This document shows, piece after piece, positions 1,282 to 40,290 of a DNA stretch of 64,000 nt (its first letter is position 1; every line of letters begins with the position of its first letter). The notes beneath the pieces are model-generated. The model saw only the letters and a program-made list of their open reading frames with translations. It made no database searches and had not been told where the DNA came from. The translations under genes were made by a program, and so were the position numbers. The stretch comes from a virus (Duplodnaviria; Heunggongvirae; Uroviricota; Caudoviricetes), in IMG/VR virus record IMGVR_UViG_3300033993_002218, positions 1 through 64,000 of that record, one strand, 5' to 3'.

Positions 1282-2016
1282 TCAGACTGTCACAGGCAGT
1301 TTCTTACTGTAACCGCTGAACTGTTGATTAGAACGACGGGCGCGAATTGCCTTGCCCCAGAGTGAACCTTTCGGTTGAGTTCCATGCACCAACAGAGCAA
1401 ACGGTTTCTCACCGAAACAGTGAGAGTCGTCATGATCTACTTCAAGACCTGCAGCGTTAGCATCACCTTCGGTCATGAAGACTTTAGCATAACGAGTGAA
1501 CAATCCTGCATCAATCAGACTATCCCATTTGCCACCATAAGAGGCAGTGAAGTAGAAGTTAGCAGGCATCTTAAAGTTAAGAAACAACTGCAGACTCTTA
1601 GAGTAGCAGTAGAATTTCAGATCAGGATTGCGCTGTGCAACTTCAATCCAGGCATCCAAATATGCACCAGAGAAAAAGTCTCCGCTCTCATGAATCCGCA
1701 CCAGTTTGGTATTTTTTGTGCGGTGTTCTTGAATGCCCTCATTGATAAGATCTGCTGCAGATCCATCCTTCAGAGCATCAACAATCAGGCGCAGATTGTT
1801 GGCGCGATTGTTGAATGCTGCATCGTATTGCACCTCACTGGATGCAGCAAAGCATCGGAAAATAGTATGCTCGCCATCTTGAATGTGACGCTCGCCGTTA
1901 TCAACAACAACGAACGATTTGCAATACATTGCACCGGGGCAAGTCTTACCTGCTGGCAGGTTAAAGATCAGAGTTTGCTTGCCCAGTTTGGCGTTACCCT
2001 TGGTGAAGTTCAGCAT
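1282..2016 (-). CDS. hypothetical protein (244 aa)
   Basis: Long ORF with ordinary, not low-complexity, amino-acid composition. Preceded by a diverged cassette. Confidence 0.6.
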   Translation of the reverse strand: MLNFTKGNAKLGKQTLIFNLPAGKTCPGAMYCKSFVVVDNGERHIQDGEHTIFRCFAASSEVQYDAAFNNRANNLRLIVDALKDGSAADLINEGIQEHRTKNTKLVRIHESGDFFSGAYLDAWIEVAQRNPDLKFYCYSKSLQLFLNFKMPANFYFTASYGGKWDSLIDAGLFTRYAKVFMTEGDANAAGLEVDHDDSHCFGEKPFALLVHGTQPKGSLWGKAIRARRSNQQFSGYSKKLPVTV

Positions 2017-2108: not shown

Positions 2109-2588
2109 TCACACCCAGAGTTTCTCTTTCTTCATGCGATTCACCATTGCAGTAGCAAACTGCCCACAATCGTCACATTCAATAACTGCCTCAATCTGAT
2201 AGCGAAGTTTAGACTTTTCGGAACCCCGGAAAGTATAACGCCAGATTGCGCTGGCAGTTAGCAACAGTTGGCGGCGCTTTGCCCATCCTTCCGCACCTTT
2301 ATTAACCAAATCATGATAAACGCGAATCATGGCACGGTAAGTGTTACCATTGTGGCGCAGTCGGTTGAGTTCATGAACAAACAACTTTCCACCACTAATG
2401 TGACTATCAAGTTCAGTGGCAAAAAAGTCAACGAACTTGAGTGCAAGTTCTTCCACATTGTTAGAAACAACAGGAGCAACTGTTGGCGCCAGAGTGTCAC
2501 TTACAACGCTCAGAATCTTGGCGATCTCATCAATCTTACCTTGAACTTGGTTGCCGTTGATAACAACTTGAACAGTGGCGTTGCTCAT
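2109..2588 (-). CDS. hypothetical protein (159 aa). C-terminal ECDDCGQF.
   Basis: ORF track. Followed by a strong minus-strand terminator at about 2798-2847. Confidence 0.6.
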   Translation of the reverse strand: MSNATVQVVINGNQVQGKIDEIAKILSVVSDTLAPTVAPVVSNNVEELALKFVDFFATELDSHISGGKLFVHELNRLRHNGNTYRAMIRVYHDLVNKGAEGWAKRRQLLLTASAIWRYTFRGSEKSKLRYQIEAVIECDDCGQFATAMVNRMKKEKLWV

Positions 2589-2797
2589 GATTTTAGAAGT
2601 GAGGCGGCGTCATTGGTGCGCCGTTGAGTGAATGATGCCATGCCAGAACCGACCCGATCAACCACCATTGTGCCACTGATCGAACTGGCACAGCATCAGG
2701 GTTTTGTGGGCAGTCTGGCAGTATCTTAAGAGGACAACCAGCACCAACGGGAGAAGGGTATCTCTACTGAACAATACATCGCCACGGAACCTGTCAA

Positions 2798-2847
2798 AAA
2801 ATAATAAGATAAAGAAAAGAAAAAGGATCAGGCACCACCCTGATCCT
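2798..2847 (-). terminator. intrinsic terminator (minus strand)
   Basis: Perfect 9 bp stem AGGATCAGG/CCTGATCCT with a 7 nt loop. On the minus strand it is followed by TTTTTCTTTTCTTTATC. Confidence 0.7.
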
Positions 2848-2945
2848 CAAGATCCACTTTCACCTATCATGTATGCTATGATTATCTGTTCTCTACGCAT
2901 TGAGTGTCTTTTCTTAAGGATGGGGCGCATCTCATTCCCCGTGTA

Positions 2946-3176
2946 TCAAAAGTCTACCATCCAGTCTGGATCATTGTCAAGTGAAACCCAAAAAAAGTAT
3001 TTCTGATTCATAGATGCAAGAAACAGTTTGTTTCCTTTGTGTTGCTCGATGATACATTCATCGTTTGATTGCATCATGTTTGCAAAGCGATTCTTTGCTT
3101 TCTTCGAGATTGGAATAACGAATGCGGTTTCCATGATGTGCTCGTCGAGATGTACATAATCTAGTTGATGTCTCAT
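2946..3176 (-). CDS. hypothetical protein (76 aa, start uncertain)
   Basis: ORF track. The N-terminal codons overlap a CTCGTCGAGAT iteron copy. Alternative starts are METAF (about 3134) or MMQSN (about 3075). Confidence 0.35.
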   Translation of the reverse strand: MRHQLDYVHLDEHIMETAFVIPISKKAKNRFANMMQSNDECIIEQHKGNKLFLASMNQKYFFWVSLDNDPDWMVDF

Positions 3177-3245
3177 GACTCGTCGAGATTGAATGTGCCA
3201 CTAGATGATGTGGCACACCTCGTCGAGTTTTAGAACTCAATCTCG
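3140..3245. repeat. iteron-like cluster, 3-4 copies of CTCGTCGAG(A/T)T spaced about 40 bp
   Basis: Seen directly: ctcgtcgagatg at 3141, ctcgtcgagatt at 3180, ctcgtcgagttt at 3220. The same 9-mer near-palindrome CTCG(T)CGAG recurs at 7160-7341. Confidence 0.5.
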
Positions 3246-3376
3246 TCTAGTGTGGGGACATTATCTTGACTAGATTCACCACTGTCCATCCCAGAACACA
3301 GTGCATCAAGAATCGAAAGGATGCTGTTCCCATCAGTGCCTTGGTCCAGAAGAGTTGTCATAATTTCTTTGTTCAT
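3230..3376 (-). CDS. hypothetical small acidic protein (about 48 aa)
   Basis: Hand-translated MNKEIMTTLLDQGTDGNSILSILDALCSGMDSGESSQDNVPTLDEIEF. GGAG lies 8 nt upstream. It sits between a terminator and the next gene. Below the 60 aa ORF-track cutoff. Confidence 0.3.
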   Translation of the reverse strand: MNKEIMTTLLDQGTDGNSILSILDALCSGMDSGESSQDNVPTLDEIEF

Positions 3377-3384
3377 GAATTACT

Positions 3385-3422
3385 CCAAGAAAGAGAATGA
3401 AAGAGGGAGAAGAATCTCCCTC
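3385..3422 (-). terminator. intrinsic terminator (minus strand)
   Basis: Hairpin GAGGGAGA-AGAA-TCTCCCTC followed on the minus strand by TTTCATTCTCTTTCTT. Confidence 0.55.
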
Positions 3423-3431
3423 TAGATGCTA

Positions 3432-3644
3432 TCAGATCGACAGCAGTCGCTCGCTACGAATAGCAGAGTTGATGAAACTACCAACAGATTCCTCTTTGGC
3501 AATCACAGTATTCAGATCAGACACAAAGTTGCTGGGTTCAGCAACCTTATAGGTATAGTTACGACCACCCATGAAGGTGATGGTCACTTGCTCATCTTGC
3601 ACATCGCTGATGTTTTCGATGGCGCTGGATTGGAACTTGAACAT
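3432..3644 (-). CDS. hypothetical protein (70 aa, trimmed start MFKFQ)
   Basis: The N-terminal 33 codons of ORF 3432..3743 translate the intergenic cassette. The internal ATG is the first one after the cassette. Confidence 0.5.
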   Translation of the reverse strand: MFKFQSSAIENISDVQDEQVTITFMGGRNYTYKVAEPSNFVSDLNTVIAKEESVGSFINSAIRSERLLSI

Positions 3645-3699
3645 AATAAAAACAAAAAAGTAAGGTTTGAGTGAAGTGTTTTGAGCGGGATGCTTCACC

Positions 3700-3764
3700 C
3701 CCGCTGATGAATCTAGTATGGCACGGGTTGGCAGTGGTGTCAACCCTTGTGTGCCACTTACTGA
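3700..3764 (-). promoter_or_regulatory. intergenic promoter-hairpin cassette (type B: TTGACA in hairpin, 17 nt, CATACT)
   Basis: Minus-strand reading: GTGACAGTTCAGTAAGTGGCACA box, hairpin GGGTTGACACCACTGCCAACCC, then CATACT. TTGACA-17-CATACT fits a sigma70 spacing. Confidence 0.5.
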
Positions 3765-3785
3765 ACTGTCACAGTTCAGGTACGG

Positions 3786-4031
3786 TTAACCGTTCACCGC
3801 ACCCAACACCACAGATCTACGATTGTGGTAAGGAGAGGATTCGTCCACAAACGGATTGCCACGCAAATCGGTGTAATCTACGTGCTGCTCAGGATTGAAC
3901 TCCATAGTATCAGCATTTCCACCTCGGTCGTAATAACCACGACCCTCACTGTGGACAACTACTTCAACGATGGCATCCTGATCCTCAAAGGTGGACATCC
4001 ATTCAATCATTTGGCGAACGGTCATTGTCAT
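3786..4031 (-). CDS. hypothetical protein (82 aa, trimmed start MTMTV)
   Basis: GAGGGAGA Shine-Dalgarno about 10 nt upstream of the internal ATG. The upstream part of the ORF is cassette sequence. Confidence 0.5.
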   Translation of the reverse strand: MTMTVRQMIEWMSTFEDQDAIVEVVVHSEGRGYYDRGGNADTMEFNPEQHVDYTDLRGNPFVDESSPYHNRRSVVLGAVNG

Positions 4032-4100
4032 TAGGGGTCTCCCTCTCAACAAATGTAGTATGGCAGCAAATGGGGGGCATTTCAAGCCCCCGTGTGCCAC
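4032..4100 (-). promoter_or_regulatory. intergenic promoter-hairpin cassette (type B)
   Basis: Box GTGACAGTTCAGTAAGTGGCACA, hairpin GGGGGCTTGAAATGCCCCC, then CATACT (TTGAAA-17-CATACT). Confidence 0.5.
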
Positions 4101-4352
4101 TTACTGAACTGTCACACTCTCCACCAGTTCTTGATAGTATTCCTCACCATAGATTGAGGTGATAAGAGATTCCATGTCATTCTCAGATTCATGAGCGAAA
4201 GAATCAACTAGCAGTTCATAAACCATCTGCTCCATTGTTTTCGTATCCATTTCATCTACGACACGATCACAATACTTTTCAACAATCTCAGAAATCTGTT
4301 CGGGAGTGAGTGTCATTTTCTCAGGGGAGAATTGAAGTAACGAGTGAAGCAT
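4101..4352 (-). CDS. hypothetical acidic protein (83 aa)
   Basis: ORF track. The start could instead be the internal MTLTP. Confidence 0.5.
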   Translation of the reverse strand: MLHSLLQFSPEKMTLTPEQISEIVEKYCDRVVDEMDTKTMEQMVYELLVDSFAHESENDMESLITSIYGEEYYQELVESVTVQ

Positions 4353-4547
4353 AGCACCAGAATGATGCCAGTGGAGATCACTCCGACCAGTCCGAGAACT
4401 GTCACAGAGTCGCCAGTAAAGTTGTAAGTGTCAGGTGTCATCGGATCAGAAAAACAAACAAAGGAAGAATTGCCAGAAGATGATACATCTTCAGAGTTTG
4501 GGATGTGCCATCCTTATAGTGGATGATGAGAAGATCTTGGTTCATTA

Positions 4548-4679
4548 TCAGAAATCCCAGTTAGAGTTGAGGAAAGCGTTCCAAGTGTGCTCATCATTGT
4601 CTTCTTCATCCTGCAGTTCAGGAATGTCGAAGATTTCGCCGGGAGCATCAGCAATTTCGATCCAGAGGGTGTCTTCCAT
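4548..4679 (-). CDS. hypothetical small acidic protein (about 43 aa)
   Basis: Hand-translated MEDTLWIEIADAPGEIFDIPELQDEEDNDEHTWNAFLNSNWDF. CA-rich leader ACACACCCGACACC-ATG. Confidence 0.25.
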   Translation of the reverse strand: MEDTLWIEIADAPGEIFDIPELQDEEDNDEHTWNAFLNSNWDF

Positions 4680-4692
4680 GGTGTCGGGTGTG

Positions 4693-4780
4693 TGTGGTTG
4701 ACTTCTTAAGTATAGGGGCACTGTAGGCGATCCTAGGTGCCCCCTGTGCCAGTTGTCAGAGTGTCACACAGGCACCTTGA
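4693..4780 (-). promoter_or_regulatory. intergenic cassette (type C). Shares about 50 bp identity with the copy at 5566-5635.
   Basis: GGTTGACTTCTTAAGTATAGGGGCACTGTAGGCGATCCTAGGTGCCCC then TGTGCCAGTTGTCAGAGTGTCAC. Hairpin GGGGCAC/GTGCCCC. Confidence 0.5.
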
Positions 4781-5004
4781 CGCATTTGAGTATAACCACC
4801 TTGTCCAAGGTATCCAAAGTTCTTATGATGAATACCATAATAGTAGCGGCGAGCATTAGTCTCAGTCAGACCAAGATGATCTGCCATTCTCTTAAAAGAA
4901 TGCTTTGGGTAACATTTCTTATACAGATTAGTCATCTCACACCAGAATGATGCATTTTTGGTGAAGTTGATGCTCTTAGAAGAATGAACCTTGACGAGTT
5001 TCAT
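4756..5004 (-). CDS. hypothetical basic protein (82 aa)
   Basis: ORF track. The C-terminus and stop lie inside the conserved box of the downstream cassette. Confidence 0.5.
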   Translation of the reverse strand: MKLVKVHSSKSINFTKNASFWCEMTNLYKKCYPKHSFKRMADHLGLTETNARRYYYGIHHKNFGYLGQGGYTQMRQGACVTL

Positions 5005-5076
5005 TGGAGTGTCGGTGGTTGACTTGTTAATCTTAAGGCACCCAGAGCGGGTCTTAGGTGCCTCTGGTGCCAGTTG

Positions 5077-5544
5077 TCAGAGTGTCACAAGATCACTGAA
5101 ATCCTGGCGGGATCGTTCCTTTACGATTACCCTATCTCCACCATAAGTCTCACCCCAATACTCACCTTCTCCACCTTTCCACACAATGTAACCTTTGGCA
5201 AGTGAACAGATAGACTTCAGAAACAAATCTTCCTGCCCAGTCTTATTACCATACCCATCAATGTGAAGATTTCCATTCTCACCAATGGAAGTGTAGAAAC
5301 CAACTTCCTGAAGAATCTTTTCAGCATCCTTACAAGTCTCATGATAGTTCCAATCCATCCATGAGAACCAGCAGGACTTATGAGGACCATACTCAGGTGC
5401 CTTATCCTTATCGGGATAAGATCCACCTCGTTTCTGACTGTTAGGAACAGTATAGTTTAGTTCACACATTGCCTTATAAGCAGCATCCAGATTCTCAGCA
5501 GGAATCATAAAGGTGCTTTCTTCAATGCTGACGTAGTAACCCAT
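5077..5544 (-). CDS. hypothetical protein (155 aa, trimmed start MGYYV)
   Basis: The upstream 24 codons are cassette sequence. CA-rich SD-less leader CAACCACCACATCATC-ATG. Confidence 0.55.
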   Translation of the reverse strand: MGYYVSIEESTFMIPAENLDAAYKAMCELNYTVPNSQKRGGSYPDKDKAPEYGPHKSCWFSWMDWNYHETCKDAEKILQEVGFYTSIGENGNLHIDGYGNKTGQEDLFLKSICSLAKGYIVWKGGEGEYWGETYGGDRVIVKERSRQDFSDLVTL

Positions 5545-5616
5545 GATGATGTGGTGGTTGGTTGACTTCTTAAGTATAGGGGCACTGTAGGCGATCCTAG
5601 GTGCCCCTTGTGCCAC

Positions 5617-6087
5617 TTATGCTGCTGTCACATAGTTGGGAATCTCCACCCGTTCAGCAGCATCAAACAGACCCGTCTTGTATGCTTTCCAGTTATCATT
5701 CAGATCGAACAGGTAAGCATACTCTTCACCACCCAGATTTCCTGAGATAAACTCATCGAAACTGGTGTGTTGAATGTCGATTTCTTCTCCACGCTCAGTA
5801 TAAAAGAGTGGTTGAGGATCACGATCATTCTCATACATCATGTATCCTTGAGAGTCATGAATGTACTCTCCCTTATCATCACGAAGAGGAGATTCATGAT
5901 TCCAAGAACCACGAGTCCTCAGTGATGAGATACCACCACCATCAATCAGTTCTTGAACATCATCACGGTCAAGATAATGTTGAACCAGAAGTCTACCATT
6001 CCCTTCAGGATAACCATCCCAGTGGCAGTAGACAGAAACTACAGTGTGATCGGGCATTTCGATGCCAATGCGTGAACGAGTTCCCAT
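5617..6087 (-). CDS. hypothetical protein (156 aa)
   Basis: ORF track. Leader CATACT...CACCACACATCACTG-ATG. Confidence 0.6.
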   Translation of the reverse strand: MGTRSRIGIEMPDHTVVSVYCHWDGYPEGNGRLLVQHYLDRDDVQELIDGGGISSLRTRGSWNHESPLRDDKGEYIHDSQGYMMYENDRDPQPLFYTERGEEIDIQHTSFDEFISGNLGGEEYAYLFDLNDNWKAYKTGLFDAAERVEIPNYVTAA

Positions 6088-6161
6088 GTCAGTGATGTGT
6101 GGTGAACGATGTAAGTATGGCAGGGATCCTGAAGAACCTCAAGACCCCTTGTGCCAGTCCC

Positions 6162-6599
6162 TCAACTGGACATCTTTACATACTGCTCCACAATGTTGGA
6201 GATTTCAGTAGGACCAATCTGTGTACCATCCTTCATTACAAATGCCTGGTAAGGATCGACACCTGCCCGAGAATCAATTGTGGTGGAATTGATGGTCATG
6301 AACTTAGAAATCATGACATCTTGGCGGATTTGATCACTCAACCAATCCCAGAGATCAGTGTCATGATTATCCTCTTCGGTGTCACAGTTAATGAGAACTT
6401 CATTCCCATTCTGCCACACGTACTTTTCAAACTCCGTGATCACATCATCATACTCCATTTCTGTCAACCATGTGATACTCTCACTGAGATCATCTACATG
6501 ATTACCAACGAAATCAACCAGAGATTTCAGATAATCTTCCAGGTTGAAATCATCAGCAACTTGACACTTGGAGGTGCAAACAAATTGAGTGTAGGACAT
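6162..6599 (-). CDS. hypothetical acidic protein (145 aa)
   Basis: ORF track. Cassettes flank it on both sides. Confidence 0.6.
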   Translation of the reverse strand: MSYTQFVCTSKCQVADDFNLEDYLKSLVDFVGNHVDDLSESITWLTEMEYDDVITEFEKYVWQNGNEVLINCDTEEDNHDTDLWDWLSDQIRQDVMISKFMTINSTTIDSRAGVDPYQAFVMKDGTQIGPTEISNIVEQYVKMSS

Positions 6600-6668
6600 G
6601 AGGTGTCTCAGGTACGAATGTAATGTAGCAGAGCACCGGCAGGAAGTCCAGTGCCATTGTGCCAGTTG

Positions 6669-6857
6669 TCAGAGTGTCCTACCAGTCTGCTCAACCTCAT
6701 GCTTAATCATCGCAATTGCCCATAGAGCATTCTCACCTTCCGACAGATTCGGAAAGTTGTTCTCATAAACCTTCAAAACCGTTGCAATAGTCTCCAGAGC
6801 AGTGAAATCAGTTCGGTTGATGTTCAGTTCCATGAGAGTTGTGTGAACTGCAGTCAT
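6669..6857 (-). CDS. hypothetical protein (62 aa, trimmed start MTAVH)
   Basis: The ORF-track start lies inside the terminator hairpin. The internal ATG immediately follows the hairpin and T-run. Confidence 0.45.
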   Translation of the reverse strand: MTAVHTTLMELNINRTDFTALETIATVLKVYENNFPNLSEGENALWAIAMIKHEVEQTGRTL

Positions 6858-6864
6858 TATAGAC

Positions 6865-6912
6865 CACAAAGCGGCACGGGATCTCATGTCCTTGTGCCGC
6901 TTTTTTTATTGT
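6865..6912. terminator. bidirectional intrinsic terminator
   Basis: aaa-GCGGCACGGGATCTCATGTCCTTGTGCCGC-tttttttatt. A-run on one side and T-run on the other. Confidence 0.65.
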
Positions 6913-7159
6913 CACATCACATAAAGGGATCTAGGTCTTTGATGTTATAATGTACTTCTTCCCCACCTTCCAATTGAAGTACTTCGCGCCAATTAATATC
7001 TTCCAGATCCAGATCATCATAACACTCGATGTCTAGAACAACTCTTACCTGTCGTTTTTGTGCGATCATGAGAATTAAATGCGATTGTACTGAATTCTAT
7101 CATGCATAGTGGCGATATGCAAGACTTTGATAGTCTTGACCATCTCGCGCATAATCCTC

Positions 7160-7341
7160 TTCGAGATCTGATGCACCTAGTTCGGCATATGAGTCTTCGT
7201 CGAGATTGTAATCATTACCAAATGTGTAGTCGAGATCGTAGTCGTCGTACATAATGCTCGTCGAGATTCTGTGAGTGACTTTGATATTGTAGCATGATCT
7301 CGTCGAGATTGCAAGCAGTCGTGCAGGTCTCGTCGAGATTC
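7160..7341. repeat. iteron-like array, about 6 copies of TCGTCGAGAT(T/C) at about 30-41 bp spacing
   Basis: Seen directly at about 7162, 7198, 7230, 7259, 7300 and 7330. Near-palindrome CTCG(T)CGAG. It sits in a 700 bp ORF-free region. Confidence 0.55.
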
Positions 7342-7464
7342 ACATAAGATTATATAGCACTTATAAAGTACAAATATATTGAAATACTAACATATCATGA
7401 TAGTGTTATATGATGATATTGAGATCTTGTGAGGTTGTGCCAGTTCTTATGGTGGCGCGGGGGG

Positions 7465-7493
7465 TTGACTTTGCGAAGTGAGTGTGTTATAAT
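7465..7493 (+). promoter_or_regulatory. consensus sigma70 promoter on the plus strand (TTGACT-17-TGtTATAAT)
   Basis: TTGACT at 7465-7470, 17 nt spacer, TATAAT at 7488-7493, extended -10 TG at 7485-86. It is the only strong plus-strand signal in the window. Confidence 0.55.
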
Positions 7494-7626
7494 GCGCTCG
7501 CCAAACTTGCATAAGAATCGACCATTTATAAGGCATTATAAGGCATTTAGAAAGCATAAGACTCAAAGTATTAAAAGATAATAACATCATATAACACTAT
7601 CATTATAAAAAACAATTATATATTTT

Positions 7627-7824
7627 TTAATACCTTTTTTTAATTGATACTATTTCTAACTTAGGTTTCCATTGATGAAGACCATGACACTCAACACCTC
7701 TCTTCATCATCTTAACCATTGCTTCCTGTGCGGATTCTAATTCAAAATATACTGCCTTCAGAGTACAATTCATATAAGTGTACTCAACATAGTAGAATCC
7801 TTCCTTAAGTGGATCAAACATCAT
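7627..7824 (-). CDS. hypothetical protein (65 aa)
   Basis: ORF track. ATGA overlap with the upstream gene stop. Confidence 0.45.
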   Translation of the reverse strand: MMFDPLKEGFYYVEYTYMNCTLKAVYFELESAQEAMVKMMKRGVECHGLHQWKPKLEIVSIKKRY

Positions 7825-8294
7825 TTGTACAGATAAGATCCTGCCCAGTCAGCACGACGATAGCAATTATCACGGGATTGCTTATCCATGAGATTAAAAC
7901 GCACATGCTTGGCAGGAGACTTCCAGGTTGCAGGTTTATACACTTCACCAGTCTTCTTATCAATGAAGGCATGAATACTCTTTTGCTTCACACTACCATC
8001 ATGATTGACACCAGTTTCCATTTCAATACGCAGATACTTACGACTCTCCACAATATAGAAATTCATACGATAATCATAAGTGCCATTGCGAATTTGCTCC
8101 AGACACTTCTCATGATAGGGAACATAAGATTCATCCACAATACCATTCTTGGCAATGGCATTCTGATGAGATTTCGTAGTGTGAAGACGATAGTTCTCAT
8201 CCAGAGCATTGACCAGAGATTCAGTATAACGAAGCACATCGTTCACTTGTGCCTGAACCATAGGACGGGTTGCAACGAAGTCAGAGAAGGTCAT
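7821..8294 (-). CDS. hypothetical protein (157 aa)
   Basis: ORF track. Preceded by a cassette. Confidence 0.6.
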   Translation of the reverse strand: MTFSDFVATRPMVQAQVNDVLRYTESLVNALDENYRLHTTKSHQNAIAKNGIVDESYVPYHEKCLEQIRNGTYDYRMNFYIVESRKYLRIEMETGVNHDGSVKQKSIHAFIDKKTGEVYKPATWKSPAKHVRFNLMDKQSRDNCYRRADWAGSYLYK

Positions 8295-8377
8295 GTGAGG
8301 TTTCTGTGTGTATGAGACTATTGTAGGGCATCCAGAGGAGTCTGAAGTGCCCTGCTGTGCCAGTTAATCAGGTGTCC
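8295..8377 (-). promoter_or_regulatory. intergenic cassette (type A: box, hairpin, TATAAT/TACAAT, SD)
   Basis: tgtgtgtatgagactattgtagggcatccagaggagtctgaagtgccc then tgtgccagttaatcaggtgtcc. Confidence 0.55.
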
Positions 8378-8634
8378 TCAACAATCAAGCAATAACGGCA
8401 CTGGAAAGCAAAAGTTTCTTTTTGCCAGGTTTTCTTCACACCATTCTCTTCCCAAGAATAAACAACCTCATACCAAGGGTCAGTAGAACCATAAGAATTA
8501 AAACCCTCAACGGTCACATAACCCTTGGAACCATCTGCCCGTGCCCAACGAGAACCAACTTGGATTTCATGATGTTTGAAGAAATGACGGACAACTGCTT
8601 TGTGTCCATCTATGATTTCAGTTTCGTAATTCAT
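8368..8634 (-). CDS. hypothetical protein (88 aa)
   Basis: ORF track. Confidence 0.55.
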   Translation of the reverse strand: MNYETEIIDGHKAVVRHFFKHHEIQVGSRWARADGSKGYVTVEGFNSYGSTDPWYEVVYSWEENGVKKTWQKETFAFQCRYCLIVEDT

Positions 8635-8639
8635 TATGC

Positions 8640-8930
8640 TTAAAAGAATTCTTTAATCATTTGCTTGAGATGCCACCAAGTTGATTTGGGTTTGTCTTCT
8701 TCAAGTGGGTTTTCCCTCTGCTCAAAATCCTTTCCATTTCGACCACAGAGAGATTTATCTTTCCTGACTTCAATACAAACCATATCAACAGCATAAACTA
8801 TGCCTTTAATGTAATCCAATTCTTCAACATAATGCTTTTGGCAAACATGAAAAAGACCAGGAATCAAACGACAATGCTTACAATCGCGGCAAGCAGGAAT
8901 CGGTTCAAGTAGAGAGTAATTTTCAGACAT
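8640..8930 (-). CDS. hypothetical Cys-rich protein (96 aa, trimmed start MSENY). Possible zinc-binding CxxCxxC.
   Basis: CRDCKHC...C...C pattern. The ORF-track N-terminal extension overlaps the upstream gene. Confidence 0.5.
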   Translation of the reverse strand: MSENYSLLEPIPACRDCKHCRLIPGLFHVCQKHYVEELDYIKGIVYAVDMVCIEVRKDKSLCGRNGKDFEQRENPLEEDKPKSTWWHLKQMIKEFF

Positions 8931-9510
8931 TGAATTCCATATCAACAAGAACCATTCTAGGTGCAAGATGAGCAGTCAACTCACCAATAACTTCAGCATC
9001 AACAAGACCAAGTTTACTCTGAATTGCTTCAGGAATCAACTTCAGAATCATTTCCCGAAACCTGTCATCCTCAGCAATATAACAGGATACTTCATCAGCA
9101 AGTGCTTCAGCAAGTCGTTCGTAACTTTGTTGTGTAAGTCCCACTGCTTTTTTCTCCTGTGTGTTGTTTTTTTGAGGTGTTACGTTATGAATCCACTTCT
9201 CATTCTTATGTTCTGCAATTAGAGAACGATTTACCCAACGATCAATGTCACTACCATAATACTCATTGATGATATTGGTCGTACACTGATCGCACTCAGA
9301 ATCACTGAAACCATATCCACGATACATCTCATTTGCATAGATCGTATCATAAATGATCTTCTGTGCAATTATAGGTTCAGTGTTGGTTGTGATTACTGCA
9401 TAAACAAGTGCATTGATCTCTTCAATGACTGAATCGGGAGTGTAAGAATAGCATTCCCATTCTTTACGATCACAGTAGAGTTTGTGAACGACATAATCAA
9501 AGGTAATCAT
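8923..9510 (-). CDS. hypothetical protein (195 aa)
   Basis: ORF track. Confidence 0.6.
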   Translation of the reverse strand: MITFDYVVHKLYCDRKEWECYSYTPDSVIEEINALVYAVITTNTEPIIAQKIIYDTIYANEMYRGYGFSDSECDQCTTNIINEYYGSDIDRWVNRSLIAEHKNEKWIHNVTPQKNNTQEKKAVGLTQQSYERLAEALADEVSCYIAEDDRFREMILKLIPEAIQSKLGLVDAEVIGELTAHLAPRMVLVDMEFNV

Positions 9511-14431: not shown

Positions 14432-14514
14432 TTGAGTCCTTTGCGTATGAGAGTATTATAAGACAAGAAAGAGCACCTGTGAAGTGCCCTGTGTGCCAGT
14501 TGTTCAGGTGTCCT
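14432..14514 (-). promoter_or_regulatory. intergenic cassette (type A)
   Basis: tgcgtatgagagtattataagacaagaaagagcacctgtgaagtgccctgtgtgccagttgttcaggtgtcc. Confidence 0.55.
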
Positions 14515-22621: not shown

Positions 22622-22698
22622 TATTCTTTGCGTATGAGAGTATTATAAGGCAAGAAAGGGCACCCCGAAGGATGCCCTGTGCCAGTTGTCAAAGTGTC
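22622..22698 (-). promoter_or_regulatory. intergenic cassette (type A) with a textbook terminator hairpin
   Basis: Minus strand: ACACTTTGACAACTGGCACA box, hairpin GGGCATCC-TTCG-GGGTGCCC, TTTCTT run, then TTATAAT. Confidence 0.6.
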
Positions 22699-24831: not shown

Positions 24832-24912
24832 TGGGTTTCGTTGATTACTTGTTTATTATAAGGCATCAAAGGGCACCTGTGAAGTGCCCCTGTGCCAGTT
24901 AGTCAGGTGTCC
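24832..24912 (-). promoter_or_regulatory. intergenic cassette (type A) with a perfect hairpin
   Basis: ttattataaggcatcaaagggcacctgtgaagtgcccctgtgccagttagtcaggtgtcc. Hairpin GGGCAC-CTGTGAA-GTGCCC. Confidence 0.55.
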
Positions 24913-34049: not shown

Positions 34050-34135
34050 GTTTCTGTGCTTGTATCCTTTTATTATAGGGCATCAAAGGGCACCTGTGAA
34101 GTGCCCTTGTGCCAGTTTAGAGAGTGTCATACAGA
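34050..34135 (-). promoter_or_regulatory. intergenic cassette (type A) at the boundary of the GC-rich island
   Basis: ttttattatagggcatcaaagggcacctgtgaagtgcccttgtgccagtttagagagtgtcat. Confidence 0.55.
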
Positions 34136-36335: not shown

Positions 36336-36406
36336 TAGGTTTCTGTGTGTATGAGACTATTATACAGCAAAAGGCACCTGATTTCAAGTGCCTTTGTGAC
36401 GGTTCT

Positions 36407-36604: not shown

Positions 36605-36690
36605 AAGAGAGTTCCTTTGTGTGTATGAGAGTATTATAAGGCAAGAAAGGGCACCCCAAAGGATGCCCTGTGCCAGTTGTTCAAGTGTCC
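36605..36690 (-). promoter_or_regulatory. intergenic cassette (type A) upstream of nadV
   Basis: tgtgtgtatgagagtattataaggcaagaaagggcaccccaaaggatgccctgtgccagttgttcaagtgtcc. Confidence 0.55.
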
Positions 36691-38064
36691 TCAGACAATT
36701 ACAGAAGCATTGTATCGGACTTCATCAAAGGTATACTCTTTGACGATTTCACCATTCTCAAACACAGTCTCAAGAACTTCTTCAGCATCAGTCCTACCTT
36801 CCAAGTCAGTGAAATAACCTTCATCATTACGATAGAGTGTTACACGACCTTTCTTGGATTCTTTACCCATATCGGTAATTGGACTCTTATACACATCTCT
36901 CTGTTCTCCTTTAACTTCAATTGAAGAACACTTCATTGCAAACTTCTGAGTATCACGGTCAATACTTTGAAGAAGTTTACCACCTTGACCGAAGGCAATG
37001 TTGTCTGCAGAATATCCAGCAGTCATTGCTCTATAAAGAATTCGGTCAATCGTATCTTGAGTGATACCATCACCTTGAATAATACGGACGTGATTAAGAA
37101 CTTTGAATCCTTTATCATTTACCGTGTGTCCATAGTGACTATCAAGAATCTTAAGGCACTCAGTTACAACTTCTGGAGGATAACCACTATCAGGACGAAC
37201 CACAAGAGTTGCACCAGAGTTGATTACATCATCCTTGAGAACAGTGCCCCACATATGGCAGGCATCGTAAATGTTATAACTATCACTTACGCAAGCAAAG
37301 AGACTGTTAGGTTTGCCGTAGATTTTTACCATATTACGGTAAGAATCTTCTTCACCCTTTCTACCCCAAGAAGTCACGGTGCTGTGTTCCATAGCAGGAA
37401 TAGAGAATCCTGCAATATCAATGTTGTAGTATTCTTTACCATAAAGCAAAGCACTTACCGTATCAGTTCCCTGAAAGTTTACAAGGTGTGCGAGACCACC
37501 AATACCAGCAGACTCGAAGGAAGATACACCACGAGCACCGAAATCGTGAAGTTTGAACTCAATCGTTCTGGGATCTCCAGTTTTCATCAAGTAATCGTGA
37601 ATGATTCTCTTACTTTCGTAGGAGTTGGTAGCAACAGTAGTTCCGTACCAAATACTCCTGAGAAGTGCAGTCTCAATATAACTTGTCAACCAAGCACATT
37701 GAGGGTCAGTATTTTCAACAGTAGCAAGAACATTCTTCACAGGAATTACAGAACCTTCAGGAACTGCTTTGATGCGAATAGGCAACTTACCACCATATTC
37801 ACGAAGAATATATTCCCAACCTTCACGATTGAAAGGTTCTCCGTGTCCCCCAGCAATTAGTTCAGCAAAATCAATATCTTCCTGAGTAATAGGATTAGAA
37901 AGATACTCCTTTAGAAAGATTTGAAGACCGAAGAAAACAGTTTGTTTCCAACTACCTCCACGACTTTCAACATAGGAATATACGTTCGTAGTCCCTTCGG
38001 GATACTGATTGTATTGCGAAAACTTGTAAGAATCTGTGTTTGTGATAATCGTTTTGTTAATCAT
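36691..38064 (-). CDS. nadV: nicotinamide phosphoribosyltransferase (NAMPT/NadV), 457 aa
   Basis: The N-terminus ...TDSYKFSQYNQYPEGTTNVYSYVESRGG and overall length match the NAMPT family. Shine-Dalgarno TTAAGGAGTTTAAA-ATG. Confidence 0.9.
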   Translation of the reverse strand: MINKTIITNTDSYKFSQYNQYPEGTTNVYSYVESRGGSWKQTVFFGLQIFLKEYLSNPITQEDIDFAELIAGGHGEPFNREGWEYILREYGGKLPIRIKAVPEGSVIPVKNVLATVENTDPQCAWLTSYIETALLRSIWYGTTVATNSYESKRIIHDYLMKTGDPRTIEFKLHDFGARGVSSFESAGIGGLAHLVNFQGTDTVSALLYGKEYYNIDIAGFSIPAMEHSTVTSWGRKGEEDSYRNMVKIYGKPNSLFACVSDSYNIYDACHMWGTVLKDDVINSGATLVVRPDSGYPPEVVTECLKILDSHYGHTVNDKGFKVLNHVRIIQGDGITQDTIDRILYRAMTAGYSADNIAFGQGGKLLQSIDRDTQKFAMKCSSIEVKGEQRDVYKSPITDMGKESKKGRVTLYRNDEGYFTDLEGRTDAEEVLETVFENGEIVKEYTFDEVRYNASVIV

Positions 38065-39088: not shown

Positions 39089-40108
39089 TTATACTCCGGT
39101 AAAATAGTTGATGATTTCGTAATGGTCTTCGTAGCACTCACTTGGATTGATTTTGGAAATTGGAATCCATTTTGCAGATGTAGCATCACTTCCACCTTTG
39201 ACTTTTGGAAGTTCTCCGTTAGGAAGTTTGATGTGAAATGCATGAGTGATTGTCCTACCTCTGGTGCTTCGTTCAATCGCATCAAAGACTTTTGCTTCTG
39301 CTATATTACCACGAAGAACTGGAGCAGGCACCTTGAGTTGAGTTTCCTCCCTCACTTCCCGTATCATAGCATCCTCTAGGGACTTGTCGCTTAAAGCGTC
39401 TAGGAACCCTCCAGGAAGGGCAAGGAGACCCTTTCCAGGTTCTGCCCGACGACGAATCATCAGAATGTGCCCACACTGCACTACGACGGCATCCACCGTC
39501 ACGAAGGTTGGGGGATATGGGAAAGAAGCATACTGAGACTTATATTTTTCAACAAAATCAATCTCTCGGAGAATTTGGTCGTAATCCTCTGTCTTAGAAA
39601 ACTTATTGAGAAACTCCAGAACTTCTACTGGAATGACACTCTTAATAAAGTTTGGGTTGTAGTCCTCTTTGAAGTAGAGTTTTCGGATTTGAGATGCACT
39701 CAGTTCTTCAATCAAAGGGACTTCAATTAGGTCCCACTGAGGGAACATATCAAGATAGAAAGAAGTCTCATCTTTCTTGTATCCAATAATTCCAACTTTA
39801 ATGTCTTCAAAGGGATTGATTTTATTCACAATACTTTGAACTCTAGATACCCAAGCATCATTGTTGTAGATGGTATCTTGAATTGGATGAATGCTATAAC
39901 TAGCATTTACCATCATTAAAGTTTCGTTGATTAAATATTCCCGTTCATCATAAGAGAATGGGTTCTTAAAAGTTCTGGGTTGATTTGCAGACCCCACAAT
40001 AATCGCAGTGTGTTCTGCAAGTTCTGTTGCCCGTTTGATAATCTCTAGGTGAGCATTATGGAACGGTTGAAACCGACCAATAAAAACAATTACATCATAT
40101 TTTTTCAT
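39089..40108 (-). CDS. natV: bifunctional NMN adenylyltransferase / Nudix ADP-ribose pyrophosphatase (NatV/NadM-Nudix type), about 339 aa
   Basis: FIGRFQPFHNAHLEI is the (H/T)xGH nucleotidyltransferase motif. GGFLDALSDKSLEDAMIREVREETQL is a Nudix box. The start is trimmed to MKKYD behind TAAGGAGTTTAGAATT-ATG. Confidence 0.85.
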   Translation of the reverse strand: MKKYDVIVFIGRFQPFHNAHLEIIKRATELAEHTAIIVGSANQPRTFKNPFSYDEREYLINETLMMVNASYSIHPIQDTIYNNDAWVSRVQSIVNKINPFEDIKVGIIGYKKDETSFYLDMFPQWDLIEVPLIEELSASQIRKLYFKEDYNPNFIKSVIPVEVLEFLNKFSKTEDYDQILREIDFVEKYKSQYASFPYPPTFVTVDAVVVQCGHILMIRRRAEPGKGLLALPGGFLDALSDKSLEDAMIREVREETQLKVPAPVLRGNIAEAKVFDAIERSTRGRTITHAFHIKLPNGELPKVKGGSDATSAKWIPISKINPSECYEDHYEIINYFTGV

Positions 40109-40225
40109 AATTCTAAACTCCTTAGAATGTTGTGTTGTTAGAACGTCTATCGTTCTAATGTATGTATTATAATGGAAAAGGGGGGCACCTGTAAAGTGCC
40201 CTTGTGCCAGTTGTTCAAGTGTCCT
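40109..40225 (-). promoter_or_regulatory. intergenic cassette (type A) upstream of natV
   Basis: attataatggaaaaggggggcacctgtaaagtgcccttgtgccagttgttcaagtgtcc. -10 at 40166-71. Confidence 0.55.
40138..40158 (-). promoter_or_regulatory. perfect 8 bp inverted repeat (TTAGAACG-tctat-CGTTCTAA) in the natV leader, between the -10 and the Shine-Dalgarno
   Basis: Seen directly. Candidate operator or leader hairpin. Confidence 0.4.
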
Positions 40226-40290
40226 CAAATAAGTGCTTTGTTTTTTCTTTGAGTTCTTTTATAAGGTCATCCCTGATAATTTCTTGTGGT

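Follow-up and report, generated by a model that had tools for sequence, protein, structure and literature searches.

A conserved module of T4-like cyanophages that resembles an early switch coupled to a possible replication origin

Introduction

We describe a region of a tailed-phage genome (Caudoviricetes; IMG/VR record IMGVR_UViG_3300033993_002218), of which we analyzed positions 1 to 64,000, here called the window. The region (6913-7626) carries two small minus-strand genes, A and B; an array of palindromic CTCGTCGAGATT repeats spread over gene B and over the promoter upstream of it, P_B; and, back to back with this array, a plus-strand promoter, P_+, that points through short tandem repeats and a slot of short boxes into an AT-rich tract. 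The features and their coordinates are collected in Table 1. The same module recurs in many T4-like cyanophages, and to judge from its sequence the region looks like an early switch with a candidate origin of replication attached.

Results

Genes and promoter layout at the locus

A preliminary reading of this stretch, made by a model from the letters and their open reading frames (ORFs) and here called the sequence-only reading, had taken 6913-7626 for 700 bp free of any credible ORF. This turns out to be wrong, as genes A and B are both conserved, and with them inside the region the non-coding part comes down to 7253-7626 (374 bp). Gene A matches phrog_12516 (E=5e-13) and has 121 homologues, every one of them hypothetical. 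It adjoins the module in 38 loci and in the isolates S-SM2, S-SCSM1, Bellamy, SynMITS9220M01 and S-SKS1, and it is always linked to the module. Its AlphaFold model has a confidence (predicted local distance difference test, pLDDT) of 84 and almost no regular secondary structure, and no match was found in Pfam, in a PDB-sequence profile search or in a Foldseek search with the model. A guess that gene A has an AbrB/MazE-like or ribbon-helix-helix-like fold found no support in these searches. Gene B occurs as 37 protein variants of 42-62 residues, in which the N- and C-termini are fixed and all length changes are in frame. It is annotated in P-SSM2 (PSSM2_098) and carries no annotation in S-SRM01 or S-T4; the non-coding part is unannotated in all the records examined. 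Neither A nor B nor the gene at 7627-7824 matches a Rep, helix-turn-helix or other DNA-binding family or fold.

Upstream of gene B, the layout of promoter and palindromes is near-invariant in 38 distinct loci. Read along the gene strand it is cTTGCA / ATCTCGACGAG / 6-7 nt / TAtAAT / 16-18 nt / ATCTCGACGAG / 2-5 nt / ATG of B, with a further site about 30 bp upstream. The site next to the ATG (O3) has an invariant position in 35 of the 38.

Palindromic repeats

With at most one mismatch, TCGTCGAGAT matches 11 times in the 64 kb where 2.1 matches are expected, a count that none of 100 shuffles reaches, and all 11 matches fall within two clusters, 3101-3229 and 7158-7339. The cluster at 7158-7339 has six copies plus one overlapping reverse match, with centre spacings of 39, 30, 31, 42 and 30; the one at 3101-3229 has four copies spaced by 38-41. 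A 12-mer search with up to two mismatches gives the same two-cluster picture. The sequence-only reading had noticed about six repeats near 7160-7341 and more of them at 3140-3245, had described a near-palindromic core of the type bound by dimers, and had proposed a search for the repeat elsewhere in the DNA. The counts bear it out on both clusters, and within the window the cluster at 3101-3229 is the only other one. The core is equally real: the logo of 342 sites reads (a/t)tCTCGTCGAGAT(t), whose core CTCG-T-CGAG forms a palindrome and whose AT extension has only a partial mirror image. The sites are imperfect 13-15-bp palindromes, AATCTCGtCGAGATT. Over the 342 sites the spacings peak at 30-33 and at 42 bp, about three and four helical turns.

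Three of the six repeats are held within gene B, where they are translated as (D/N)-L-(D/E)-(E/Y). In the L-D-E tripeptides at the sites, the Leu codon is CTC in 87% of cases versus 3% elsewhere in B, and the Asp codon is GAC in 84% versus 29% elsewhere. Since the codon choice is fixed to the motif, a DNA site appears to be selected on top of the protein code, and gene B would be a clear example of DNA-binding sites coded within protein-coding sequence.

The second array is placed between the minus-strand gene 3230-3376 and gene C (2946-3134, minus strand), and one of its sites occupies codons 9-12 of gene C in another reading frame. Copies in different frames and in intergenic DNA indicate that the signal is at the level of DNA. 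This array is kept in S-SRM01, and comparable intergenic arrays are present in the related sequences L085, L101, L132, L138 and L161; in all, secondary arrays stand upstream of small genes in six other loci, which suggests a regulon. In the secondary arrays of L138 (~8309-8369) and L161, each palindromic site is followed by TTATCACA (ATCTCGACGAGtTTATCACA, three times), a second co-repeated element. Alongside the arrays of L085 (5950-6047) and L101 ends a gene for a very acidic protein (...DWQATWDQNLRHDFDFVDGFVFHS), which resembles the anti-restriction protein ArdA by eye only. We also scanned 185,579 genomes for paired motifs; the hits are chance-looking matches in GC-rich bacteria, with no cyanobacteria among the matches listed, and the scan is uninformative.

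A module conserved across cyanophages

Searching IMG/VR for an exact CTCGTCGAGATT pair spaced 15-35 bp identifies at least 81 viral contigs, with arrays of 4-10 copies each. The 57 distinct modules that we extracted have one common order. In the plus orientation of the window, this is gene A and gene B (both on the minus strand), the minus-strand promoter, 2-5 more palindromic sites, the plus-strand promoter, the leader CGCTCGCTaaaCTTGCATAAG, the tandem units, the slot of short boxes and TATATTTTTTAATACCTTTTTTTAAT. Carriers in culture are P-SSM2, P-SSM5, S-T4, S-SRM01 and S-SKS1, with arrays in S-SRM01, P-SSM2 and S-T4; the 250 kb of P-SSM2 contain a single array, at the homologous place, and a single copy of the module. 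Four other isolates, S-SM2, S-SCSM1, Bellamy and SynMITS9220M01, are without the palindromic sites and gene B and keep gene A, the minus-strand promoter, P_+, the box slot and the T-rich end. Because these array-less isolates retain the plus-strand core, the repeats and the core are separable.

The contents of the box slot differ by lineage. In most lineages it contains three copies of TTCTCAAT, one of them inverted; in the window and in L295, L296 and L146 it contains CATATAACAC boxes. In 9 of the 57 modules it has perfect TTTTCCACA boxes, two or three per module and oriented alike, and the density of TTTTCCACA is 1.46/kb in the module versus 0.004/kb elsewhere on those contigs. In S-SKS1 the slot has two perfect TTATCCACA boxes, and in S-SM2 and S-SCSM1 it has TTTTCCAC/TTCTCCACA pairs. 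The sequence TTTTCCACA is the cyanobacterial DnaA box, trios of which define oriC in cyanobacteria (PMC4674748). A search for TTWTNCACA found no DnaA box in the window at 7494-7823.

Table 1. Features of the region and related elements of the window. Positions are those of the window.
Feature	Position	Strand	Description
Gene A	6917-7069	-	50-residue conserved acidic protein, M.AQKR.VRVTLDI.CYDDLDLE.I.W.ELL.LEGDE.V
Gene B	7100-7252	-	50-residue Asp/Tyr-rich acidic peptide, MYDDYDLDY...DLDE...DYARDGQDY..LAYRHYA
Site O6	7158-7167		inside gene B; protein code and DNA site
Site O5	7197-7206		inside gene B; protein code and DNA site
Site O4	7227-7236		inside gene B; protein code and DNA site
Site O3	7257-7269		early transcribed/ribosome-binding region; ends 4 nt before the ATG of gene B
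P_B	7286-7314	-	TTGCAA (-35, 7314-7309), 17-nt spacer, TGcTACAAT (-10, 7291-7286)
Site O2	7299-7311		full palindrome 7297-7309; fills the spacer of P_B
Site O1	7329-7341		30 bp centre to centre upstream of O2
Left arm of 28-nt inverted repeat	7393-7420		inverted ATCATATAACACTATCAT box copy, upstream of P_+
P_+	7465-7493	+	TTGACT, 17-nt spacer, TGtTATAAT; fires against all genes
Conserved transcript start	7494-7515	+	GCGCTCGCCAAACTTGCATAAG
Tandem 10-14-nt units	7509-7568	+	GCATAAGAATCGAC, CATTTATAAGG, CATTATAAGG, CATTTAGAAAG, CATAAGACTCAAAG
AT-rich tract	7564-7645		lowest duplex stability; ends in conserved TATATTTTTTAATACCTTTTTTTAAT
Right arm of inverted repeat / box slot	7580-7607		TTCTCAAT inverted repeats or DnaA boxes in other lineages
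Second array	3101-3250		sites at 3101, 3142, 3180, 3220; degenerate inverted copy at 3239-3250
Second promoter family	14455-14479, 22642-22666, 24855-24879, 34072-34096, 36356-36380, 36633-36657	-	(TTCA)CAGGTGCCCTTTgatgccTTATAAT

The plus-strand half of the module

The sequence-only reading had called P_+, a sigma70 promoter, the only strong promoter on the plus strand, and this is confirmed: at most one mismatch away from TTGACA-17-TATAAT there is a single plus-strand match in the 64 kb, versus 11 on the minus strand. In the 57 distinct modules and the isolates, the promoter is conserved as TTGACA-17-TGnTA(C/T)GCT. We found no ORF downstream of P_+ on the plus strand. Directly upstream of its -35 lies a G-rich run, GGTGGCGCGGGGGG (7421-7464), which reads GGGtctGGGag...GGGGGtGGG in relatives and is missing in L117; the elements usual at this place, upstream of a -35, are A/T-rich UP elements.

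The tandem -10-like repeats and the AT-rich tract that had been pointed out downstream of the promoter are also there, the former as TTATAAGGCA copies at 7526-7545, the latter as the least stable duplex of the whole window (7564-7663, at W=40, 60 and 100 bp). In relatives, the tandem units come in 2-8 copies of 10-23 nt each, with a sequence and a number that vary by lineage. L292 and L294, from other samples, have a module identical to that of the window except that the tandem units of 7523-7568 differ in number and sequence, which is a strain-level polymorphism in repeat copy number. A reading of the 10-11-nt units as Pho boxes (CTTA-N7-CTTA) was discarded, since most lineages have units of 20-23 nt and only CTTA matches. 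In the plus-strand RNA, an AU-rich hairpin followed by U7 occupies 7568-7643.

The repeats as candidate operators

We lean towards reading the CTCGTCGAGATT repeats as operator sites of an early control region, bound by a regulator. A dimeric DNA-binding protein would bind the 13-15-bp palindromes, and P_B would drive the small genes B and A. The promoter-proximal operators would be O1, about 30 bp upstream of the -35, O2, in the spacer, and O3, which reaches up to 4 nt from the ATG; O4-O6, inside gene B, would serve as auxiliary operators. Once occupied, the array would shut off or time the early B/A operon, and similar arrays, for example 3101-3229, would control other small genes likewise. 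As at known repressor operators, palindromes cover the core promoter at fixed positions (in 38 loci) and the same site is found at several promoters. With the array standing back to back with a conserved plus-strand promoter, the whole region would be a divergent early control region. An operator array beside a short plus-strand RNA had been the fallback of the sequence-only reading, and for the repeats it is the idea that fits best, both in their fixed positions at the promoter and in their recurrence at other small genes.

Several observations weigh against operators of this simple kind. No candidate for the regulator was found near the arrays. Genes A and B show no recognizable DNA-binding fold or family and both products are strongly acidic; moreover, S-SM2 has gene A without the sites, which argues against A as the binder. 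Having 6-10 phased sites over 200-300 bp exceeds what a simple repressor needs, and is also typical of the nucleoprotein complexes of origins and partition systems. Some of the site spacings (36 and 39 bp) are off-phase. The array may also activate instead of repress. As for P_+, the position of the palindromic site nearest to it varies from -57 to -167, and with a distance that is not fixed, control of P_+ by the array is not established.

A possible origin in the right half

The right half of the module, from P_+ to the AT-rich tract, could be a transcription-activated replication origin. This proposal is compatible with operators in the left half, and we regard it as a serious possibility without favouring it. 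Host RNA polymerase would read P_+ early, and the untranslated RNA would cross the tandem repeats and the box slot into 7564-7645, where an R-loop or activated unwinding would prime phage DNA synthesis, on the model of T4 oriF, oriG and oriE. The slot would bind an initiator: host DnaA where it contains TTTTCCACA or TTATCCACA, and another protein here, where it contains CATATAACAC. The neighbouring palindromic array would gate the use of the origin.

An origin at this place is suggested by the order of elements, in which the one strong plus-strand promoter is followed downstream by the least stable duplex of the 64 kb, by the homologous tract of P-SSM2, which is in the top 0.04% for instability, and by the tandem units, which at 10-23 nt are iteron-like and measure about one or two helical turns each. 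Perfect DnaA boxes fill the slot in 9 of the 57 modules, and boxes are also found in S-SKS1, S-SM2 and S-SCSM1. In P-SSM2 the module is single-copy, and that phage encodes gp59, gp41, gp61 and UvsW, with which T4 carries out R-loop initiation. On the other side, the window itself is without a DnaA box and no Rep-like initiator gene lies nearby. The GC skew of P-SSM2 gives no origin signal; it is dominated by gene orientation and runs monotonically, since one strand carries almost every gene, and once it is detrended, the maximum left near 65 kb is weak and has a sign opposite to that of a classical origin. DnaA boxes can serve as transcriptional control sites too, and AT-rich intergenic DNA is common in phages.

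Different kinds of origin compare differently with the locus. A promoter with an unwinding element just downstream, as in T4 oriF and oriG, is present at the level of sequence. A cluster of DnaA boxes beside an unwinding element is present in relatives only and absent from the window. Of what characterizes an iteron origin, the repeats beside an AT-rich element are found, whereas an adjacent Rep gene is not, and repeats and core do not always occur together. The sequence-only reading had seen in the palindromic repeats the iterons of a promoter-dependent origin. Its idea of such an origin gains from the unstable DNA of the right half and from the DnaA boxes of relatives; for the palindromic repeats it is not supported, as four isolates keep the promoter core without them.

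A broader proposal is that T4-like cyanophages have their lytic origin, and the switch that controls it, in this module: an early host-type promoter would send an untranslated RNA into an unwinding element, a swappable slot would recruit host DnaA in many lineages through perfect cyanobacterial boxes, and operators would gate both origin firing and an immediate-early anti-host function. We consider this speculative and doubtful as a whole. If it were true, phage replication would be tied to the replication status of the host, and would perhaps depend on light and the cell cycle.

Alternatives

Another candidate for the functional product of P_+ is a short (about 140-250 nt) early non-coding RNA. 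Its A/U-rich units with AAGG/GAGG cores could titrate an RNA-binding factor or ribosomes, or else the RNA could be antisense to read-through from the upstream gene 7627-7824. Conservation covers the promoter and ~22 nt at the start of the transcript, which is oriented against all genes and has no ORF; the repeat units retain a GG-containing core across lineages; and the AU-rich hairpin with U7 at 7568-7643 could terminate transcription. However, within 2500-9000 there is no relevant Rfam 15 match at E<=1, the fold is no better than that of shuffles (z=-1.2), and no terminator hairpin is conserved across loci. The sequence and number of the repeats vary freely, even between near-identical strains, and the transcribed part contains DNA palindromes and perfect DnaA boxes, which are signs of a function at the level of DNA. 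On this evidence we find an RNA product unlikely. ARAGORN reports no tRNA or tmRNA in 2500-9000.

The two arms of the 28-nt inverted repeat, 93% complementary and 159 nt apart, bracket P_+, which raises the case of an invertible (phase-variable) promoter flipped by a recombinase. We reject it as highly improbable, since the promoter has the same orientation in all eight sequences compared, namely the window and seven related contigs that include near-identical strains of different samples. In most lineages the two box copies both follow the promoter, or the boxes are of another kind, and no recombinase gene was seen adjoining the module in a search that was not exhaustive. The arms are copies of the CATATAACAC box that flank P_+, as box copies also do in L295 and L296.

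That the repeats matter only as protein, as a DLDE repeat encoded by gene B or by a longer, frameshifted gene, and play no part as DNA is the least credible explanation and is rejected: the six copies in 7158-7341 are readable as (N/D)LDE in two frames, but three of them are in promoter DNA upstream of the conserved ATG of gene B, those of the second cluster are in three frames and in intergenic DNA, and synonymous codons are fixed to the DNA motif.

Other features of the window

Nearly all ORFs of the window are on the minus strand, and most are small. By blastn, the studied region aligns at 75% identity to an unannotated gap of S-SRM01, a freshwater T4-like cyanophage (Kyanoviridae), and by sequence we place the window as a Kyanoviridae relative of S-SRM01. 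A megablast search of 6600-8000 against INPHARED gives no match, as for a phage without a close sequenced relative. The best match of the NAMPT gene in the window is to Synechococcus phages, at 62% identity. This gene forms a minus-strand pair for NAD salvage at 36691-38064 and 39089-40228, consisting of NAMPT (PF04095/PF18127) and a fused cytidylyltransferase-like/NUDIX protein.

Within the window the palindrome is confined to two places; six other promoters are marked by a different motif. This motif, (TTCA)CAGGTGCCCTTTgatgccTTATAAT, whose spacer contains a conserved GGTGCCCTTT, has six minus-strand copies where 0.03 are expected, and may be a general early-gene element of the phage, possibly the Syn9-type element of Doron et al. 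2016.

To the left of gene A, the sequence-only reading had placed a terminator at 6865-6912. A hairpin is indeed present there (6868-6877/6894-6903, a perfect 10 bp with a 16-nt loop), and T7 comes next on the plus strand, so that the element is oriented against the genes. We did not find this element (6868-6912) at the equivalent place in S-SRM01. It overlaps the first ATG of the ORF 6669-6887, which therefore probably starts at 6857.

Two segments differ in composition. Positions 1-2000, which include a GP88-family gene (1282-2016, minus strand), have a GC content of 51-54% and a positive GC skew, and the remaining window is at 36-46%. The segment 29960-31510, at 50% GC, has a strong negative GC skew, a positive AT skew and, on both strands, many long overlapping ORFs; a repetitive gene or one of unusual composition may lie there.

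Discussion

The Kyanoviridae, or T4-like cyanophages, count among the most abundant viruses in lakes and oceans, and to our knowledge neither a replication origin nor a regulator of the earliest genes has been established experimentally in any of them. The module supplies cis-elements that can be tested, by mapping origins, by finding the regulator, and by asking whether replication couples to host DnaA. The sole statement on an origin that we found is a single theta origin predicted for Syn9 by GC skew, as cited in PMC2984593. In the searchable literature on the motif and on cyanophage origins, non-coding RNAs, regulatory motifs and DnaA boxes we found no description of the module. It may overlap with the Syn9 early-gene element of Doron et al. 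2016, although the palindrome has just two locations in the window and the six other promoters bear a different motif; a full-text search for the motif returned unrelated primer matches only.

Several known systems share parts of this arrangement. Multi-operator control with auxiliary operators in coding sequence is familiar from lambda OR/OL, from lac O2 in lacZ and from gal OI in galE. Like these, the locus has palindromes over the -35/-10 and the transcript start, further sites downstream in a coding region, promoters placed back to back, and reuse of the site elsewhere. Unlike these, it has 6-10 sites per array, several of them dual-coded in an ORF of 50 residues, and no helix-turn-helix gene adjacent; and where lambda is temperate, the phage here is lytic and T4-like.

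Two T4 origin types also come close. T4 oriE, a subject of Vaiskunaite and colleagues in 1999, reportedly combines the small early genes repEA and repEB with 12-nt iterons. In both cases short repeats are located in or beside tiny early genes of a T4-type phage, with both strands transcribed (here by prediction). Unlike oriE, to which there is no sequence similarity, the locus has an opposite-strand promoter of the host-type early kind, not a late one, and DnaA boxes in relatives. In T4 oriF and oriG, a promoter and a downstream DNA-unwinding element (DUE) yield an R-loop primer. The cyanophage module likewise has a strong promoter that points into the least stable DNA ~70-150 bp downstream, and gp59, gp41, gp61 and UvsW occur in the family; it differs in a promoter that is sigma70-type and not MotA-dependent, and in the tandem repeats and box slot that lie between promoter and AT tract.

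The tandem iteron-like units of the module recall origins with DnaA boxes or iterons, such as cyanobacterial oriC, P1 oriR and lambda ori. Relatives of the window have 2-3 perfect TTTTCCACA boxes at 11-31-bp spacing beside the AT-rich tract, as does the oriC of Cyanothece (PMC4674748). Unlike in those origins, the window has neither a DnaA box nor a Rep gene, and the type of box is swapped by lineage, between DnaA, TTCTCAAT and CATATAACAC boxes. Finally, many short phased repeats at promoters, with several arrays per replicon, are also a trait of partition systems. In ParR-parC and in omega of pSM19035, small proteins of ribbon-helix-helix type bind arrays of 7-11-bp direct or inverted heptads; here, the sites are 13-15-bp palindromes, no such protein was identified, and a lytic phage needs no partition. 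Each part of the module is of a known kind; what appears to be new is the combination, in which a putative multi-operator early control region is joined to an origin-like element of promoter and DUE.

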